Source of the DNA: Candidatus Nanosyncoccus sp.
GTDB lineage: Bacteria; Patescibacteriota; Saccharimonadia; Saccharimonadales; Saccharimonadaceae
DNA length: 64,000 nucleotides
Direction of reading: 5' to 3'
Assembly: GCA_045641305.1 (NCBI GenBank)
Contig: JAZUGS010000013.1
Coordinates: 421 to 64,420 of the forward strand
Shown piece by piece: positions 48,820 through 57,543 of the stretch. The notes under the pieces were generated by a model. It worked only from the letters and a program-made list of their open reading frames with translations, was not told where the DNA came from and ran no database searches. How positions within the stretch are numbered: position 1 is the stretch's first letter; each line of letters opens with the position of its first letter. A program made the translations under genes and the position numbers.

Positions 48820-49662
48820 ATGAAACCTATTTATTCCCAAATCAATCAATATCTGGACTATTGCGAGCACGCGCGCAATATGTCGCCAGCTACTATGCGC
48901 GCCAAACGTAGTATTTATCATCGTTTTGCTGAAGTTATCGCGTGCGACAATCTCAAAAAACTCACCAATGCTGATTTTGATCGCTGGACCCGCTATGGGC
49001 TGTCGCGCGGAGCTTCACCGCGTAGCATTAATGCTTATAATGCCAATATTATGGCAATGCTGAATTATTATCGGGAGATGGGCATGAAAATTCCCCTCAA
49101 AAGCCCACTAGTGCATAAACTCAAAGAAGGAGAGGTGCGTCGGAGCTTTTATACGCGCTCCCAAATTCGCGAAGTTTTGCGCTATGCCAATCCTACAACC
49201 GCGCTAATGATTAAAATCTGCTTTGACAGCGGTATGCGTATTGCTGAACTTACAAATCTTAAACTCGCCAATATTCATGAAAATCGGATTAATTTTGTAG
49301 GCAAGGGCAACAAACCGCGCGAAGTATATCTTTCTGACGGCACAATGCGGTTGCTGCAAGAATATATTAAACGCCACCAGATTAAAAATTATCTCTGGCC
49401 AAGCCCGCGGAATAGTGGAGTGGAGCGACCTCTTACCGTTCACGCTGTTCGCAAACGTCTTCGCCAACCTTTTTACCGAGCGGGGTATATAGATTTTTAT
49501 CCTCATTCCCTGCGGCATTCTTTTGCTACTGATCTTGAGTTTCGTGGCGCTTCTGTCGCCGAAATTCAACAGATGATTGGGCATTTTTCGATCGCAACCA
49601 CCGAACGCTATGTCCATGCGCTAGATGGCCATCTGGCGGAGTTATTTGCTAAATATAGATAA
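48820..49662 (+). CDS. Tyrosine recombinase (XerC/D-like)
   Basis: Full catalytic set: GMRIAEL (R), GKGNK (K), HSLRH, GH and RY. Confidence 0.93.
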   Translation: MKPIYSQINQYLDYCEHARNMSPATMRAKRSIYHRFAEVIACDNLKKLTNADFDRWTRYGLSRGASPRSINAYNANIMAMLNYYREMGMKIPLKSPLVHKLKEGEVRRSFYTRSQIREVLRYANPTTALMIKICFDSGMRIAELTNLKLANIHENRINFVGKGNKPREVYLSDGTMRLLQEYIKRHQIKNYLWPSPRNSGVERPLTVHAVRKRLRQPFYRAGYIDFYPHSLRHSFATDLEFRGASVAEIQQMIGHFSIATTERYVHALDGHLAELFAKYR

Positions 49663-50142: not shown

Positions 50143-50219
50143 GGGGGTGTAGCTCAGTTGGTTAGAGCATGCGTCTTATACACGCAATGTCCTAGGTTCG
50201 AGCCCTAGCACCCCTACCA
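50143..50219 (+). tRNA. tRNA-Ile(TAT)
   Basis: Cloverleaf with anticodon arm TGCGT-CT-TAT-AC-ACGCA and encoded CCA. Confidence 0.85.
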
Positions 50220-50308
50220 GATTTACTATTTTGCACCCGTAGGCTATCGCCTTCGGGCGCGGCATTCGTCGAAAGAGCAAGAGCAAGCTCTTGTCTTTCT
50301 CCTCATTT

Positions 50309-50385
50309 GCACCCGTAGCTCAGTGGATTAGAGCACTTGTCTTCGGAACAAGGTGTCGTGGGTTCGAGTCCCTCCGGGTGTACCA
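50309..50385 (+). tRNA. tRNA-Arg(TCG)
   Basis: Anticodon arm CTTGT-CT-TCG-GA-ACAAG and encoded CCA. Confidence 0.92.
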
Positions 50386-51027: not shown

Positions 51028-51420
51028 TCACAATAGGCGCTTTAGCCTATTTTTTATTTCTGCCAAATCTTCTTTCTTCATTCTCCCCATTAGCTTTCCT
51101 GAAATCCTTGATGTATCAAACGCCCTCAACTGACTTAAAATAGCTACGCTATGCTGATTATCTAGAAATGTAAAAGAAAAATAATATTTTCCAGATTTAT
51201 TTCGTGAAGTCAATGGCACGCCCCAGAATAATTCTTTTGAAAAACCACGAATTATTGCGACTGGCCTAGAAAATAGTTCACCTTTGCCGTCCTGCTCCAT
51301 ACCGATGTTATCGCCAATTAACACCCAATAAATGCCGCCTTCCTTGTAGTTGGGTCTAGCATCGGTATTATTGTTTACTACCATTTTAACTGGTGTCCAT
51401 TTTTTATAATCTTTTTTCAT
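51028..51420 (-). CDS. PemK/MazF-family endoribonuclease toxin
   Basis: GGIYWVLIGDNIGMEQDGKG..FSRPVAII, GVPLTS, ILSQLRAFDTSRI. Confidence 0.9.
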   Translation of the reverse strand: MKKDYKKWTPVKMVVNNNTDARPNYKEGGIYWVLIGDNIGMEQDGKGELFSRPVAIIRGFSKELFWGVPLTSRNKSGKYYFSFTFLDNQHSVAILSQLRAFDTSRISGKLMGRMKKEDLAEIKNRLKRLL

Positions 51421-51648
51421 GTTTACTCCTATTTTAATTTAACAAAAAAACGCGCTGAGCGCGGTAGCGCGATTGTAGCGCGGATGGGTGGATTTTGCAA
51501 CCCCATGAGAATTTTTAAGCCTAGGCGGGATAGTTATAGATGATAGCCATAATAAGTGGCTATTTTTGGGCTTAGGGAAGGTGCGGCATAATAAAATAGT
51601 AGGTAGTGGGCAAAAGGTGGGAAGGAACAATAATTAAAGGAGGATAGC

Positions 51649-52626
51649 ATGACGAATGCTTCAAACACTACCCCAAAAACCCAAAACACCAAAAATACTA
51701 ATACTACCGAAAACAAAACGACAAAAAGTAAAATAGTAGAAATAAACACCATTGCAAAACTTGAACAGAAAATCAAAGGCCTACAAGTATCAAAAACAAA
51801 ATCTGCTAAACAGGATATTGATGAACTTAAACGGGAAATACGGCATTTACAAGAAAAATATAAAGCCGCCGCAATGGAGCTGGAGAAAAATAATCTATCG
51901 GAATTAATATTCATAGACTCTACAAATGGCTTTAAAAAATTAGTGGGAAATTCGGCACTATTTTACACACACGATATTGCTAAACGGATTGGGCGTCGCG
52001 TCAACCTGTTGGCGGATACGGACCGTTATTCCCGCTCAGAAAATGGTGTAGTTTGCTTAAAACTTACGGGCGATTTAGAAAATAGTTTGGCGAGTGTATT
52101 TATTGTGCGAAGTTCAGAACAACAAATTGAGGGTTTAACTCGTTTCATGCTACCAGCAAAACATTCAACAAAAGAGTTAGAAGAAATAAAAAATGATGCC
52201 AATAAAATTTCGGAGCAGATTAATACTATAGTAGTACCAAAATCTTTGATACCAACTATTTTTAGTGATTTGAGAGAGCTAAATGTGATCGTCTTTCAAC
52301 ATACGCAAAATATGCCACCATTCGCGAGAAACATTATCGGCTCCGAATTATTAGCAACTAGTGACAAAATGTTGCTAAGGTATTGCGAAACTACGAATGG
52401 CGATTTAAAAGTTGAAGACGGTTTGCTGCGAATTATAAAAGGTGCAAGATTTATCAAATATGAAATGAAAAATGTAGAAAGTTTGAGGTTGATGCATAAT
52501 AAAACGATTATGCAGATTTTGGAACTAGTAGTCAGAATTGAAAAAGAGGCTTTGAAAGAATATAAGATTCGTAAAATGGCAGTTGAGAAAATCATTAAGA
52601 ACGCAGTGCGCGAGGAGCAAAAATGA
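51649..52626 (+). CDS. DGR accessory protein: coiled coil + MutS-I-like domain + Avd-like four-helix bundle
   Basis: LIFIDSTNGFKKLVGNSALF resembles MutS domain I, and PTIFSDL...MPPFARNIIGSEL resembles Avd. Its stop overlaps the RT start (ATGA). Confidence 0.65.
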   Translation: MTNASNTTPKTQNTKNTNTTENKTTKSKIVEINTIAKLEQKIKGLQVSKTKSAKQDIDELKREIRHLQEKYKAAAMELEKNNLSELIFIDSTNGFKKLVGNSALFYTHDIAKRIGRRVNLLADTDRYSRSENGVVCLKLTGDLENSLASVFIVRSSEQQIEGLTRFMLPAKHSTKELEEIKNDANKISEQINTIVVPKSLIPTIFSDLRELNVIVFQHTQNMPPFARNIIGSELLATSDKMLLRYCETTNGDLKVEDGLLRIIKGARFIKYEMKNVESLRLMHNKTIMQILELVVRIEKEALKEYKIRKMAVEKIIKNAVREEQK

Positions 52627-53732
52627 GTCAGGCGTTTAGTGATTGGCTATTAAACCAATTATGGATTGCGTATTTGGAGGCAAGAAAGGGCAAGCGTAAA
52701 ACCGTTGACGAACATAGATTTGAAACAAATGACATGGCAAACGTTATAGCTTTGCGTGATGAAATTATGGAGCGAAGATACCATCCGCGACGTGGTGAGG
52801 CGTTTATTATCTATGATCCTGTGCGCAGAGAAATTTTTGCGGCACCATTTCCAGATAGAGTAATACACCATTTTTTATACAATGTATCGGCAGATTGGTG
52901 GGACAGGAGATTCATTAATGATTCTTATTCTTGTCGGGTGGGCAAGGGGACGTTATATGGGCATCAGCGTCTTACGAAACACATCCGTCAGGTTTCGCAA
53001 AATTATAAAGAACCCGCTTTTGTCGTAAAACTTGATATTCAAGGTTATTTTATGAGCCTTAGTCACAAAAGACTATACGAGCGCGTGTGTTGGGGGCTCG
53101 ACAGACAGTTCAAAGACGACAAAGGGCAACTTTACAGAACAGTAAAATATCTTTGGCGGGAAGTCATTTTTGATAACCCAACTGACAAAGTCCATATTAA
53201 AGGTAAGCCATCAGACTGGAAGGATTTTCCGCGTAATAAATCACTATTTTGCCAACCAAAAGGTCAAGGTATCGTAATCGGCAATCTCACGAGTCAACTA
53301 TTATCTAATATCTATTTGGATCAAGTGGATAGATTCATTACAATGAAACTAGGATATAAGCATTATGGAAGATATGTAGACGACTTTTACTATGTTGTTC
53401 CCTGGTCGCAAAAAGACCGTGCAATTCGCGATATTAAAGTGATTGAGGATTATATGAGAAGTTTAGGTTTGACGCTACATCCGCGCAAGAGGTTTATGGG
53501 AGATTCAAGGAAAGGTGTGCCTTTTCTTGGCGTTGTAGTCTATAATGGTTACACGGTACCTGGGGAGCGAGTAAAGAAAAAATGTAAAGCAGCAATGGTA
53601 AAATTTGCCTGCGGGCAAGATGGTGCAAAATACGAATCGGTAGTATCCTATATGGGGCATCTTGAGCACATAAACAGCAAAAAGTTTCTTAAAGGACTTT
53701 TTGACTCTCTGGGATGGGATTATCACTTGTGA
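52623..53732 (+). CDS. DGR reverse transcriptase
   Basis: APFPDRVIHH, CRVGKG, KLDIQGYF, GNLTSQLLSNIYLD (SQ signature) and YGRYVDDF; adjacent TR/VR pair. Confidence 0.96.
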   Translation: MSQAFSDWLLNQLWIAYLEARKGKRKTVDEHRFETNDMANVIALRDEIMERRYHPRRGEAFIIYDPVRREIFAAPFPDRVIHHFLYNVSADWWDRRFINDSYSCRVGKGTLYGHQRLTKHIRQVSQNYKEPAFVVKLDIQGYFMSLSHKRLYERVCWGLDRQFKDDKGQLYRTVKYLWREVIFDNPTDKVHIKGKPSDWKDFPRNKSLFCQPKGQGIVIGNLTSQLLSNIYLDQVDRFITMKLGYKHYGRYVDDFYYVVPWSQKDRAIRDIKVIEDYMRSLGLTLHPRKRFMGDSRKGVPFLGVVVYNGYTVPGERVKKKCKAAMVKFACGQDGAKYESVVSYMGHLEHINSKKFLKGLFDSLGWDYHL

Positions 53733-53739
53733 AAATTTG

Positions 53740-53990
53740 AGAAGATCGAGGGGCGAACACGCGGAACTAGGAACCGCCGAAACCCTAGCGAGCGACACAA
53801 CGCACGGACATGCCGTTGTACCGATTGTTGTTGTTGGACGGGTTGACGTTACTGGAATTGAAGTTCAAGTTGTACGCGTTGCTGCTATTGTTGGACGTAG
53901 ACGACCAGTAGTTGCCGTTGTTGCCGGTATTGTAGACAGCACCGTAATTTCCGTTGTAGTTGCCACTACGCAGGAAGTAGAAAGGCGAAA
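53740..53990 (-). ncRNA. DGR template region (TR)
   Basis: 251-bp homolog of 54237-54487; the minus strand carries 20 AAC/AAT codons and no upstream start of its own. Confidence 0.95.
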
Positions 53991-54187
53991 GGACAAAACA
54001 TCAACCACCGAAAAACCTACTTTGCTATCATAAAGACCTTGACCCTTATGAAAATATCGACCTGCGCGCGTCGCTAAAGCGACGCGAACAAGGAGGTTTT
54101 AGATCTTCTCACGAGTCTAGCGGGAGGCGGAGCCAAATCCTCAATGCCTCAGGAATAGACCCACGGGAGAACATTACCCGTGGGTTT

Positions 54188-54196
54188 ATTATACCA
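54188..54196 (-). promoter_or_regulatory. Extended -10 promoter positioned to transcribe the TR RNA
   Basis: TGgTATAAT between the VR and TR, pointing toward the TR. Confidence 0.6.
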
Positions 54197-54236
54197 TACA
54201 TGCAGTAATAACCTAAAGCGTTTTTTCTCCGAGTTC

Positions 54237-54487
54237 AGAAGATCGAGGGGCGAACACGCGGAACTAGGGACCGCCGAAACCCTAGCGAGCGACACAACGC
54301 ACGGACATGCCGCGGTACCGATTGAGGTCGTTGGACGGGTTGACGCTACTGGAATTGAAGTACAAGTAGTACGCGCAGCTGCTATTGGTGGACGTAGACG
54401 ACCAGTAGCGGCCGTAGCGGCCGGTACCGTAGACAGCACCGTAAAGCCCGAGGTAGAGGCCACTACGCAGGAAGTAGAAAGGCGAAA
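54237..54487 (-). repeat. DGR variable region (VR) plus IMH
   Basis: 26 mismatches to the TR by hand alignment: 25 at TR adenines and one non-adenine difference (54269 vs 53772) after the stop codon. Confidence 0.95.
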
Positions 54488-56447
54488 TAGAGATATTAGA
54501 TTTTGTTAGCCCCAATTTACTAAACTCACCAGAGGAGCCACCAGTTGGTAAGCGCCAGCCTTTTGGACAGATGGAATCAGAGACGTTAGTACCGCTACTA
54601 GTTACGCTGGCATTTCCGGAACCAGCTGTAGCAGCAAACCACGAATAGAATGTACCTACGCTCCAGTGAGCACAAGTTTCAGCACTATTGCCTGCACCTA
54701 TACAGTCGTCTTCAGTCTTCCAATTTACGAATGTAGTGCCGTTTTGCATATAGACTGGGGAGAAATAGGTATCGCCGTCATTGCCATAGTCGCCAGAGGT
54801 GCCGGCTGCTACGTCTGAGGCGGGACGGTAGGAATGAGCGGTTGTGTTAAAATCACCATCCCATTGACCATCTGGATCTTCAATGCCACTGGCGGTCTTA
54901 TATTGATGGTCTTGAGTGCTGCGATTTGGTGTCCAGCCATTTGCTACTGCTGTGGCAGAGTTTAAATCTGTATCTGCGGCGGTTAGAGTAGTTCCTGTGT
55001 CTAACACAAAGTCTAGGTTCTGCGTCATCCAGATGTTGCCGTCGGCTTGCTTGGCAGCGTAGTAGGTTTTACCATCGCGCTCATCGCAGAGTTGAACTTG
55101 GGTGTTAACATCCTTAAATAGCGTACTTTTGAGATTAGTGATATTCTGCATGGCAGGAGTGGTACCGCATAAACTGGCTACTTCCCAGATAGCATAGAGG
55201 GTCTTGGTGGTGTTTTTGGGGACGGAGATGGTAGCTGGGGTGTAAGAGTTATTGTCGGGGTCAAATGCATAGGTTGGGGTGGTAGCAGTGGAGTTTTCGT
55301 CGTAGCCGAGGAAGTTGTAGCCGGAGCGAACTGGCTTGCCTGTAACATTGAAGCTGAGTGATGCGTCGTCAGGATCGTCACTACTATCTTCTACGCCTTC
55401 TGGAAGGCTGGTAACTGTATCGGTGGTGTTTTTGTTGTATTCTAGATAGAAGAAGTTTTTGATGGTGAAGAGGTTTTCTTTGGTGTGGGTCCAGATGCCA
55501 GTCTCGACGGCGACATCGTATGAACCAAGTGCGAGACTATTTGGCAATTTGCAGCTCAGAGTGAGGGGGTTCTGTGTGGTGATAACGATATCTGCGCAGG
55601 AAGATGTGGTGTCGCCATTGGTGAGGTTGACGGCAACGTCGCCGAGGTAGAGGTTGGTAGAAAGGCTGGTGGTAAGGTGGATGGTCTTATTGCTGTAGTC
55701 GCCCGGGATGGTGGTTTCGCCCTCGGCAATGTCAATCTCGCCAATAGTGGAGGCGGAATCGACAAGGTGACCGATGACAAGGTAGCTTAAGGTAGTAGTG
55801 TAATCGCCTGGAGTGAGGGTCATGTTGGCCTTGGTACCGAGGTAAACGGTAGTGGTCTCTGGAGTGATGGCAGAGGCGGTCTTATGCTTGATGGCTTGAG
55901 TAGTATCATGATCTACATTAGCATAAAGCGGCATGGCGGCGAACTTGGCATCGGCGGAAGGACTAGTGGTATCGTAAGTAGCGTCAAAATTGGCAACATT
56001 AGCAACGGCATAGCCCCAAGAATTATTATCTAGCGCAGCAGGACTGGCGAAAGTGCCAGTGGTGGCATTGATAGTGTTGGTGTTGTCCTTGGTAGTGGCA
56101 CCTTCGAGGTAGATTTTATTATCTGTGACGCCTTTATTGGTGGCGATGTAAAGTGTGTAGCCAGAAGGGGAGTTGGCCGTGACGCTGATACTGTTCTCGG
56201 CGATACCAACTGCGCCTGATGATGACGGGTTGATAGATAGATTAGTACTCTGCGGTGTGGAGAGGGATAGAGAGTAATTTTGTGGATCGATTTTGGCCGT
56301 AGCGCTGTCATCTCTACGGGCCAGAGGTAAGATTGTAAAGAACAAGAGAAGGCCAAGCGTGCCACAAGCAAAATAAGGCACAAAATGTCGCACTTGTGGG
56401 GACAATTTGAGCCTGTTTATTTTATTTTTGTGACAGCTATTAACCAT
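54282..56447 (-). CDS. DGR target: membrane-anchored surface protein with C-terminal FISUMP/C-type-lectin-fold domain
   Basis: N-terminal TM; InlB B-repeat-like segment (RSGYNFLGY...TLYAIWE); WMTQNL, CPKGWRLPT, YWSST and SVRCVAR. Confidence 0.9.
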   Translation of the reverse strand: MVNSCHKNKINRLKLSPQVRHFVPYFACGTLGLLLFFTILPLARRDDSATAKIDPQNYSLSLSTPQSTNLSINPSSSGAVGIAENSISVTANSPSGYTLYIATNKGVTDNKIYLEGATTKDNTNTINATTGTFASPAALDNNSWGYAVANVANFDATYDTTSPSADAKFAAMPLYANVDHDTTQAIKHKTASAITPETTTVYLGTKANMTLTPGDYTTTLSYLVIGHLVDSASTIGEIDIAEGETTIPGDYSNKTIHLTTSLSTNLYLGDVAVNLTNGDTTSSCADIVITTQNPLTLSCKLPNSLALGSYDVAVETGIWTHTKENLFTIKNFFYLEYNKNTTDTVTSLPEGVEDSSDDPDDASLSFNVTGKPVRSGYNFLGYDENSTATTPTYAFDPDNNSYTPATISVPKNTTKTLYAIWEVASLCGTTPAMQNITNLKSTLFKDVNTQVQLCDERDGKTYYAAKQADGNIWMTQNLDFVLDTGTTLTAADTDLNSATAVANGWTPNRSTQDHQYKTASGIEDPDGQWDGDFNTTAHSYRPASDVAAGTSGDYGNDGDTYFSPVYMQNGTTFVNWKTEDDCIGAGNSAETCAHWSVGTFYSWFAATAGSGNASVTSSGTNVSDSICPKGWRLPTGGSSGEFSKLGLTKSNISISPFYFLRSGLYLGLYGAVYGTGRYGRYWSSTSTNSSCAYYLYFNSSSVNPSNDLNRYRGMSVRCVAR

Positions 56448-56498: not shown

Positions 56499-57404
56499 CT
56501 AAAAATCTATTTTGAAATAGCCTAATAGAGATTTGAATTTGTCTTGTGCGGCAAGGCAGGTATCACGGAGGTAACCTGGCTGATTTTGCCATTCTTTGAG
56601 ACCACGATAATAGAACATTTTGAGTTCATCATCAATAATAAATGGCACGATGCCAAGGCGGAGGCACTCTTTAAATAAAATGAGGCGCCCAACGCGGCCA
56701 TTGCCGTCTTGGAAGGGATGAATCGCCTCAAAACGATAATGAAACTCCAAAAGGTCATCGAGGCCGAGTACCTTGCGTGAGCGATACCATTTGAGAAGCT
56801 TTTTCATTTCCTTGCTAACGTTTTCTGGTGCGGTGGTAGACTGACCACCAACTTCGTTGGGGAGCTTCTTGTATGCGCCGACAGCGAACCAATCTTCGCG
56901 ACTATCAGAGGTGCCGTTTTTGAGGATGAAATGGAGGCGGCGAATCATGGTCTCGGTAGGCTTGCGCTTGGCGTTTTCGATAATATAATCAATGCAACGG
57001 AAGTGATTGGACGTCTCGACAACATCATCGGCACGAACGCCAGCAAACTTATGCTCAATGCCGACGGTGTTGGTCTCGAAAATGTAGCGAGTCTGGTCGT
57101 GGGAGAGGCGGCTGCCCTCGATATGATTGGAATTATAAGTGAGGTCGATTTGCACACGATGATAGATGCCACCAGAGATATTTTTGCGGTCTTCGAAGCG
57201 GAGCACAGAAAGCAGGTCGCGAGTAGGCGACTGGCTAGCATTGAGGCGAGCAGGCTTGGTGGCGTTGGCTGGAATATACCAAATTCCGCCCTCGCACTTG
57301 GCGCCTTCGATACGCCCCTTGGCGCAGTAGTCGCGAACAGCGCGCTCAGAAATCTGCCATTTTGTGGCGATGACGGGAATAGTAACATAATGTTGATCTG
57401 CCAT
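56499..57404 (-). CDS. Fic/Doc-family protein with N-terminal HTH
   Basis: Canonical HPFQDGNGRVGR motif; HTH IATKWQISERAVRDYC. Confidence 0.92.
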   Translation of the reverse strand: MADQHYVTIPVIATKWQISERAVRDYCAKGRIEGAKCEGGIWYIPANATKPARLNASQSPTRDLLSVLRFEDRKNISGGIYHRVQIDLTYNSNHIEGSRLSHDQTRYIFETNTVGIEHKFAGVRADDVVETSNHFRCIDYIIENAKRKPTETMIRRLHFILKNGTSDSREDWFAVGAYKKLPNEVGGQSTTAPENVSKEMKKLLKWYRSRKVLGLDDLLEFHYRFEAIHPFQDGNGRVGRLILFKECLRLGIVPFIIDDELKMFYYRGLKEWQNQPGYLRDTCLAAQDKFKSLLGYFKIDF

Positions 57405-57543
57405 AAGCCTATTATACTCTCTTAAACGGCAAAAATCAAGAATAGTTTTGCAAAACTTTTTAGGTTTTTGCCGATTGGTTTTAGTACGAAAAAATGCCAC
57501 CGAAGTAGCATTTTTTCTTGCACCTAATTAACTTGCGCGCTGG

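Follow-up and report, generated by a model that had tools for sequence, protein, structure and literature searches.

The mechanism of reverse transcription in diversity-generating retroelements (DGRs) is known from one phage, Bordetella BPP-1, in which the elements that prime and stop cDNA synthesis come after the template. Its genes are ordered mtd-avd-TR-Sp-brt, where TR is the template repeat and Sp the 140-nt spacer on its 3' side. Within the spacer a primer strand, Sp47-56, pairs with TR117-129, and a stop strand two nucleotides further on, Sp59-70, pairs with avd369-379 just upstream of TR; the spacer also supplies the stem-loops that bind Avd and the reverse transcriptase (RT) (bioRxiv 10.1101/2023.10.23.563531). 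Here we analyse a DGR carried by a 64,000-nt stretch of DNA from Candidatus Nanosyncoccus sp. (assembly GCA_045641305.1, contig JAZUGS010000013.1, positions 421 to 64,420 of the forward strand). We refer to this whole stretch as the window and number positions from its first letter. In this DGR, TR lies on the strand opposite RT, and the counterparts of the two spacer strands probably lie before the template rather than after it.

Other departures from the BPP-1 layout have been described. 'Inverted' DGRs, in which RT is on one strand and TR, the variable repeat (VR) and the target gene are on the other, were reported in 2012 (Schillinger et al., group 4: Shewanella, Vibrio and Photobacterium), with the observation that TR and RT need not share a transcript (PMC3521204). 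They were noted again by Wu et al. in 2018 (PMC5758913) and are treated as 'rare' by MyDGR in 2019, as is the placement of TR and VR on opposite strands (PMC6602519). For the published inverted cases the RNA architecture was not described. In Trichodesmium erythraeum, TR is located downstream of RT, has its own mapped start site and gives rise to an abundant 265-nt non-coding RNA (PMC4143802). That element differs from ours in belonging to a cyanobacterium, in having 12 targets and in resting on differential RNA sequencing (dRNA-seq) and northern evidence where we rely on prediction; the structure of its leader was not analysed. A published survey of DGRs was confined to 40 nt on the upstream and 100 nt on the downstream side of TR, and would therefore have missed elements carried further upstream in a leader. 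We found no description of a leader-borne or permuted DGR RNA in the literature searched, the coverage of which was incomplete.

The window holds a complete DGR, from a gut Candidatus Saccharibacteria genome. On the plus strand, the open reading frame (ORF) list gives an accessory ORF of 325 aa (51649-52626) which overlaps by 4 nt the reading frame of a 369-aa RT with an RVT_1 match (52623-53732; stop codon 53730-53732). The best solved relative of this RT is the Bordetella phage enzyme bRT (8ub7_A, E = 7e-26). Its translation shows GNLTSQ and YVDD motifs, and the models for group II intron, retron and Drt enzymes all score it under their cut-offs (for the retron RT model, 48.5 bits where 235 are needed). 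Relatives of the RT number in the thousands; those with names belong to Candidatus Saccharibacteria or Nanosyncoccus and are mostly from gut metagenome-assembled genomes. The target gene (54282-56447, minus strand) encodes a 721-aa product that has a hydrophobic segment at its N-terminus and, at its C-terminus, a domain of FISUMP / Lcl_C type that carries VR; matches to Fib_succ_major/FISUMP are above cut-offs, and that to Lcl_C is weak and below cut-off. The last ~68 codons of the target ORF constitute VR (54237-54487, minus strand), which also includes 45 nt beyond the target stop codon that resemble an initiation of mutagenic homing (IMH) sequence.

The AAC-rich TR (53740-53990, minus strand) and VR are homologous over 251 nt each, at an offset of 497 and with 26 mismatches. 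At 25 of the 26, the TR copy has T on the plus strand and hence A on the minus strand, so that the sense strand of the template is the minus strand. The lone mismatch of another kind (53772/54269) lies beyond the target stop codon, where IMH and IMH* would be expected to differ, and is the only difference from VR within the IMH*-like 3' part of TR (53815-53740, 76 nt). The locus thus combines an RT of the DGR clade, adenine-biased TR and VR, a target ORF whose 3' end carries VR within a putative ligand-binding (C-type lectin-like) domain, an Avd fold (see below) and an IMH/IMH* pair; no second VR was found elsewhere in the 64-kb window. The ORF list and the TR/VR mismatches bear out a first-pass annotation of the window, which had placed avd and RT on the plus strand and TR and target on the minus strand. 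The close abutment of TR on RT that it described also stands, although the measured gap between the TR homology and the RT stop codon is 7 nt rather than 8 bp.

We consider it probable that the leader and TR of this element form a separate transcription unit set tail-to-tail with RT, and that the RNA of this unit has the elements of the Bordetella DGR RNA in circularly permuted order. Two helices carry this reading. In the first, a leader strand, B5' (54102-54111, minus strand; UGAGAAGAUC), is complementary to the 3' end of TR: its partner B3' (53738-53747, minus strand; GAUCUUCUCA) takes in the end of the TR homology and 2 nt more, and all ten positions are complementary (54111-54102 with 53747-53738). 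None of 200 shuffles matched the complementarity of B5' to the TR end (p = 0.0). In the second, C5' (54090-54100, minus strand), which begins 1 nt after B5', pairs at 10 of 11 positions with C3' (54012-54022, minus strand), 21 nt upstream of the 5' boundary of TR (54100-54090 with 54022-54012). Because the adjacent B and C strands pair with the 3' end of TR and with its upstream flank, TR is looped out. Both helices are found in the unconstrained minimum free energy (MFE) fold of the 457-nt RNA, as are four further leader elements, P1, P2, SL2 and SL3, that we describe below. Adjacent duplexes resembling the template:primer and stop duplexes are therefore present on one strand, as in BPP-1, but that strand lies 5' of TR.

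Related loci show the same preference for the leader. The leader contains long perfect complements of the TR end at 14 of 39 loci (p <= 0.05 against shuffles) and the region downstream of TR at two of 39, and when cognate leader/TR-end pairs were ranked against swapped ones they were among the top three at 13 of 46 loci, the corresponding figure for the downstream region being 3/46. We then applied a strict joint test, which requires at least six Watson-Crick pairs in B, at least seven in an adjacent C, a gap of no more than 4 nt and a C3' within 60 nt of TR. The joint pattern was found in 19 of 55 non-redundant loci, compared with 1.8-6.6% of cross-locus swaps and none of the 55 in the downstream configuration. 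At the loci that show it, B5' lies 92-144 nt upstream of TR (208 nt in a single outlier) and C3' 11-38 nt upstream, and B and C are separated by 0-4 nt on their shared strand. The sequences themselves vary, from UGAGAAGAUC/AAAACCU in the window to UGAAGAUC/AGAAUCC in the related locus L082, GGGAAA/AGGAGCA in L084 and GGAAAG/AAAGGAUCU in L078; in L082 both strands of helix B are shortened by a matching 2 nt, a compensating change of length. Four of the 19 loci have TR on the RT strand with the leader between RT and TR, and the module therefore works in either orientation. MFE folds of whole TR RNAs gave a modest excess of leader/TR-end helices (43, against 27 in swapped controls, of 58). RNAduplex energies compared with shuffles were noisy, and an automatic search for helix C after the best helix B was confounded, sometimes choosing a long-range helix between the 5' end and the tail instead.

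A leader-first order is also seen in DGRs from gut and environmental metagenomes that carry all parts on one strand, in the order avd-leader-TR-RT, and for which a separate promoter is not required. In 12 of 32 such elements a B/C junction is located upstream of TR, against 7.6% in swaps and 0/32 downstream. L120 (3030-3480), L123 (1250-1690), L134, L164 and others have the same B5'-C5' junction in a non-coding leader of ~200 nt that runs from avd to TR, with a normal-sized avd (113-131 aa) and an RT start codon 17-49 nt after TR. The junction reads ...AAUUC|AG... in these same-strand DGRs and GAUC|AG in L082. L123 and the close relatives of the window alike have a CCGAGGUNAAGC-like hairpin ahead of B5'. 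In the window, the P2 domain (54113-54162, minus strand) is a helix of 54162-54156 with 54119-54113 enclosing a hairpin in the MFE fold; by eye its sequence resembles the CCGAGGUNAAGC-type hairpin upstream of B5' in relatives, and the hairpin 5' of B5' in L123, of CCGAGGUCAAGC type, likewise resembles P2 by eye. A pattern built on the P2 motif matches 10 loci, including the window. Because the same-strand DGRs share the leader-first order, the Saccharibacteria clade appears to have relocated an ancestral leader-TR unit; it would have moved this unit downstream of RT, usually inverted, and with a promoter of its own.

The predicted promoter of the TR transcript is an extended -10 box, TGgTATAAT (TGGTATAAT), at 54196-54188 on the minus strand, where the first-pass annotation had placed it. 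The window contains 32 copies of the motif TGNTATAAT where shuffles give 3.3 +/- 1.7 (~10-fold), and since copies of it stand 8-11 nt upstream of tRNA-His, tRNA-Arg and tRNA-Ser genes, we take it to be the real promoter signature of this organism. In the nine closest-type leaders the 5' boundary of TR is preceded at 173-203 nt by a TATAAT-like box (a range that leaves out L086, in which the TR boundary is cut by the contig end). Over 47 loci, -10 boxes peak at 181-210 nt upstream of TR, with 27 matches in three 10-nt bins against a background of ~3 per bin. Read-through from the target gene is impossible in most relatives, because their target is on the other strand and on the far side of RT, and in L082 the target gene and the -10 box have a terminator between them. 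Given the fixed position of the -10 box, the opposite-strand targets, the L082 terminator and a conserved structured leader, separate production of the TR RNA from a promoter of its own, as had been proposed, is well supported. The transcript is predicted to start near 54181 on the minus strand.

The leader contains three palindromes that had been recognized in the first-pass annotation, and all are present. P1 (54159-54185, minus strand), found by inverted-repeat scan and in the MFE fold, has a 9-bp stem (arms 54159-54167 and 54177-54185) and a 9-nt loop. SL2 (54061-54092, minus strand) is an 8-bp GC stem with a UUUA tetraloop (54067-54086; arms 54067-54074 and 54079-54086) set on a 5-bp base. 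SL3, annotated as a stem at 54029-54050 and measured here as 54028-54051 (minus strand; arms 54028-54036 and 54043-54051), has a GUCAAGG-type loop and is followed by an A-rich stretch. The 246-nt intergenic RNA as a whole folds modestly better than its shuffles (z = -1.8). Stronger evidence comes from the covariation test that the first-pass annotation had suggested, which we carried out on a plain MAFFT alignment of 17 leaders picked by their B5' and C3' strings. RNAalifold, unaided, recovers SL3 with compensatory changes at five of five pairs and 81.9% of cells paired, and the base helix of SL2 has compensatory changes at five of five pairs with 84.8% paired. For helix C, the SL2 base and SL3 together, 79.4% of cells are paired, against 58.2 +/- 2.2 in shuffles (0/500), and the covariation score is 0.665 against 0.300; slid partners pair in 41-51%. 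The leader stems thus exceed chance on comparative evidence, their pairing being kept by compensatory changes in relatives. A covariance model derived from the same alignment has 54008-54113 as its single match in the 64-kb window and also picks up leaders in L042, L041 and L019 with which it had not been seeded. In L041 an AAC-rich segment resembling a TR ends in the complement of the predicted B5' (GGAGAAC), 41 nt from the RT stop codon. A whole-leader MAFFT alignment of 39 loci was uninformative, as the leaders are too divergent, and an Rfam scan of the window returned tRNAs only and no retron or other RNA family.

Under the proposed reading, the element would consist of a promoter, a structured leader of ~190 nt, TR and a short tail, set tail-to-tail against the RT gene. 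The functions of the 'spacer' would then reside 5' of TR, including the primer strand, the stop strand and, probably, binding sites for Avd or RT in P1/P2 and SL2/SL3. By analogy with BPP-1, we infer that helix B serves in priming and helix C as the stop. B would be the equivalent of the template:primer duplex (TR117-129 with Sp47-56), B5' acting as primer strand and B3' as template strand, and C that of the cPRT-stop duplex (Sp59-70 with avd369-379). The cDNA would be primed in cis from the leader nucleotide at the B/C junction, would copy TR from ~53748 upward and would halt before helix C. On this scheme the TR RNA need reach only about as far as the RT stop codon.

This topology is also that of a retron. 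In the msr-msd RNA, the template RNA has its 3' end paired with a strand on the 5' side (a1/a2); stem-loops and then the template follow, and synthesis is primed from an internal 2'-OH beside the duplex. The window RT, however, is not of retron type, and instead of msDNA the product would be a long cDNA, mutagenised at adenines, by which a segment of a gene is replaced. A wider proposal is that a large lineage, comprising the Saccharibacteria elements and many same-strand DGRs of gut and environmental bacteria, uses a permuted RNA with primer strand, stop strand and protein-binding stem-loops 5' of the template, forms a leader-primed, retron-like branched RNA-cDNA, and carries a leader-TR unit that, being self-contained, is movable and invertible relative to RT; we advance this more tentatively, as a plausible idea that falls somewhat short of being probable.

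The window element shares with BPP-1 (8ub7) an RT of the DGR clade, the Avd fold, adenine-specific transfer from TR to VR and an unmutated, IMH-like 3' part of TR. In both, one RNA strand pairs with the 3' end of TR and, 0-3 nt later, with the upstream flank of TR, and stem-loops flank the junction. They differ in the position of this continuous strand, which is 5' of TR in the ~190-nt leader of the window and in the 140-nt 3' spacer of BPP-1. They also differ in that the TR unit of the window has its own (predicted) promoter on the strand opposite avd and RT and a free TR 3' end, in that the window Avd has an N-terminal extension of ~200 aa, and in that no hairpin with a GRNA loop stands beside VR. 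Finally, B and C are plain Watson-Crick helices in the window, whereas those of Bordetella are interrupted and G-U-rich. If the proposed reading is correct, the leader-first order provides a second, naturally permuted example on which the RNA elements required by DGRs can be tested. It would also account for the ability of a TR unit to work on either strand and at a distance from RT, and would define the minimal RNA to clone for reconstituting or engineering the DGRs of Saccharibacteria and of gut bacteria.

The convergent layout of TR and RT is itself not new. A survey of TR/RT orientation had been suggested in the first-pass annotation, and we scanned 80 GTDB loci with related RTs (49-61% identity) for A-biased repeats. 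TR is on the strand opposite RT in 42 of 49 TR/VR pairs from these related Saccharibacteria loci; convergence is the norm in this clade, and together with the published inverted DGRs this refutes novelty of the layout by the criterion that the annotation had set. Convergent TRs start between 33 nt inside the called RT ORF and 283 nt past its stop, with a median of ~40 nt. In 36 of the 42 convergent pairs VR is upstream on the RT strand, in the order target-avd-RT-(TR), and the remaining six, including the window, have the order avd-RT-(TR)-(target). The closest relatives, L082, L084 and L086 (RT identity 63-66%), which were fetched separately and come from independent assemblies, repeat the exact order of the window. 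DGRs of metagenomes with more distant RTs (~38-45% identity) have the usual same-strand order, target-avd-TR-RT.

With the inverted DGRs of Schillinger et al. the window shares an RT opposite TR, VR and target. Those elements, however, have been called rare and form one gammaproteobacterial RT cluster, whereas convergence is the rule in the Saccharibacteria clade of the window, and most relatives of the window have VR on the RT strand, so that TR and VR are opposite. Judged from sequence, an origin independent of group 4 is likely. TR is carried on the strand opposite VR, in the order target-avd-RT-(TR), in L007 (VR 4773-5010 on the plus strand, TR 7132-7369 on the minus strand), L019, L022 and some 30 further loci, and in such elements the cDNA must therefore home to a VR that is inverted relative to the TR locus. 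Two other loci, L089 (5392-8107) and L090 (2959-5674), have tandem AAC-rich, TR-like repeats downstream of RT, with at least seven segments resembling the window TR, which may be a multi-TR or a multi-VR array.

Several results weigh against a leader-primed, permuted RNA. Only about one third of loci pass the strict joint criteria for B and C, and a junction-scanning energy test had no discriminating power, as it failed on the BPP-1 positive control (the window scored z = -0.35). The covariation counts for helix C are biased, because the leaders were picked by their B5' and C3' strings; those for SL2 and SL3 are unbiased. No public RNA run was found that contains this sequence, including RNA runs with the same species labels as some of the DNA runs, so that where the TR RNA starts and ends, and where its copying is primed, are predictions. 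The predicted start site falls within the 5' arm of the P1 palindrome, and a start near 54181 would leave a 5-bp P1 stem at the 5' end of the transcript. Furthermore, the window has no hairpin within 45 nt of the VR end and no GC-rich hairpin with a GRNA loop near VR. The strict test also misses the known Bordetella duplexes, interrupted and rich in G-U pairs as they are, which leaves room for a weak 3' primer strand antisense to RT. The element could then be Bordetella-like, with a functional spacer 3' of TR that is antisense to the last ~140 nt of RT, and a leader that amounts to a promoter and 5' untranslated region. This agrees with the placement of the priming spacer in the first-pass annotation and with the only DGR to have been studied biochemically, and there is an A/U-rich hairpin (53678-53703) in the antisense of the RT 3' end. 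We nevertheless regard it as quite unlikely. Complements of the TR end are not enriched downstream of TR in any of the three comparisons (2/39, as against 14/39 in the leader, 3/46 and 0/55), and where a non-coding spacer of ~100-140 nt would be expected 3' of TR, the window has 7 nt before the RT stop codon. Further arguments are indirect. The distance in relatives is 2-120 nt, often with a terminator; intrinsic-terminator-like hairpins stand 5-66 nt after TR in 12 of 49. Relatives with TR on the RT strand have their gap of 209-283 nt upstream of TR, not downstream, length and structure are conserved in the leader and not in the tail, and a downstream spacer would also need to encode the RT C-terminus on its other strand.

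A different possibility is that helices B and C are real but serve to stabilise or process the TR RNA by closing its ends (an RNase III-type stem would be one example), priming being achieved otherwise, such as from nicked target DNA. Stable RNAs often have end-closing stems, and in many relatives the 5' end that follows the -10 box (G-rich in loci other than the window) pairs with the tail just 3' of TR; models in which DGRs are primed by the target have long been proposed (PMC3240598). This seems to us unlikely, as the TR/VR homology ends in exactly those nucleotides that B covers, while C abuts B and finds its partner a short way upstream of TR, a geometry and strand polarity that reproduce the Bordetella duplexes and that a generic closing stem would not need. 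The P1 palindrome, for its part, had been suggested as a target-recognition hairpin, and might (also) act as a DNA hairpin or cruciform that marks VR for homing: it is GC-rich with a 9-bp stem, is longer in DNA than the part left in a transcript starting near 54181, and is not rivalled by any other hairpin after VR. Published VR hairpins, however, lie 4-34 bp from VR and have 4-nt GRNA loops (PMC3240598), whereas P1 has its 9-nt loop and starts 52 nt beyond the VR homology, past the -10 box. The GC-rich hairpins on the VR side of ~13-15 of 39 relatives start 0-21 nt after VR, and VR hairpins occur in only about one third of DGRs and are not required for membership (PMC5758913). In ten closest-type leaders a hairpin with differing stem sequence begins 6-8 nt after the -10 box. 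L036, L067, L072 and L078 keep this first stem-loop at the P1 position although their VR is kilobases away on the other side of RT, which indicates that the hairpin belongs to the TR transcript and not to VR. A role of P1 in marking the target is thus very unlikely; P1 is, moreover, not clade-wide (mean z = -0.44 over 31 loci) but limited to the subgroup of the window. Lastly, the convergent junction could be an assembly artefact, or read-through from the target gene could be the sole source of TR transcripts. Assemblies are often broken by TR/VR repeats, the contigs of several relatives end right after RT, and the window TR is downstream of the target gene on the same strand. Both are extremely improbable: the RT-TR junction recurs in more than 40 independent assemblies, and the repetition of the window's order in L082, L084 and L086 excludes the inversion that the first-pass annotation had raised as a caveat, while the target is on the opposite strand in 36 pairs, a terminator precedes the -10 box in L082 and the position of that box is conserved. 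Public DNA runs, searched for VR diversity and for the RT/TR junction, yielded only low-coverage contigs of related strains, whose depth did not suffice to cross that junction or to reveal variation in VR.

Some features on the 3' side of TR may be of use in defining the end of its transcript. L061 and L069 have canonical intrinsic terminators ~5-15 nt from the 3' end of TR, and in L084 a hairpin between the RT stop codon and TR (5111-5156) could terminate both convergent transcripts. In the window, the A/U-rich hairpin at 53678-53703 is an 8-bp inverted repeat (CAAAAAGU...ACUUUUUG) within the last RT codons; it lies 35-60 nt past the TR end on the minus strand, is followed by a U-rich stretch and could be a weak terminator of the TR RNA.

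The accessory protein had no significant match in sequence searches of Pfam, NCBIfam or PDB, and two of its relatives reach a bAvd-like family at only E = 0.07. In its AlphaFold2 model (pLDDT 79.6), the C-terminal ~120 residues form a four-helix bundle. Foldseek matched this bundle to Avd (8ub7, 4dwl) and to the S23-family structures 2gsc and 2rld, with TM-scores (target) of 0.76-0.84 and an rmsd of 1.6-2.3 A over ~105 residues. As the modelled bundle matches Avd structures, the accessory protein is, on its predicted fold, an Avd domain with an N-terminal extension of ~200 aa. The extension (window 51649-52250) begins with a disordered stretch rich in Asn and Thr, which a long coiled helix and an alpha/beta domain follow. 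K72, E79, N82, S102, D123 and D125 are invariant across 29 relatives, and the accessory ORF has a median length of 295 aa in the clade of the window against 113-131 aa in same-strand DGRs.

The DGR is flanked by genes of other kinds. Directly downstream of the DGR target gene is a gene for a Fic/DOC-family protein with an N-terminal helix-turn-helix (56499-57500, minus strand), and a Fic neighbour is also present in L082. Immediately upstream of the DGR is a PemK/MazF-like toxin gene (51028-51420, minus strand), with a terminator-like hairpin at 51451-51463. Upstream of this toxin-DGR-Fic block are a tyrosine integrase gene (48820-49662, plus strand) and then genes for tRNA-Ile(UAU) and tRNA-Arg(UCG) (50143-50385, plus strand), a segment which may mark the boundary of an integrated island; an integrase also adjoins the DGR in L089 and L090.

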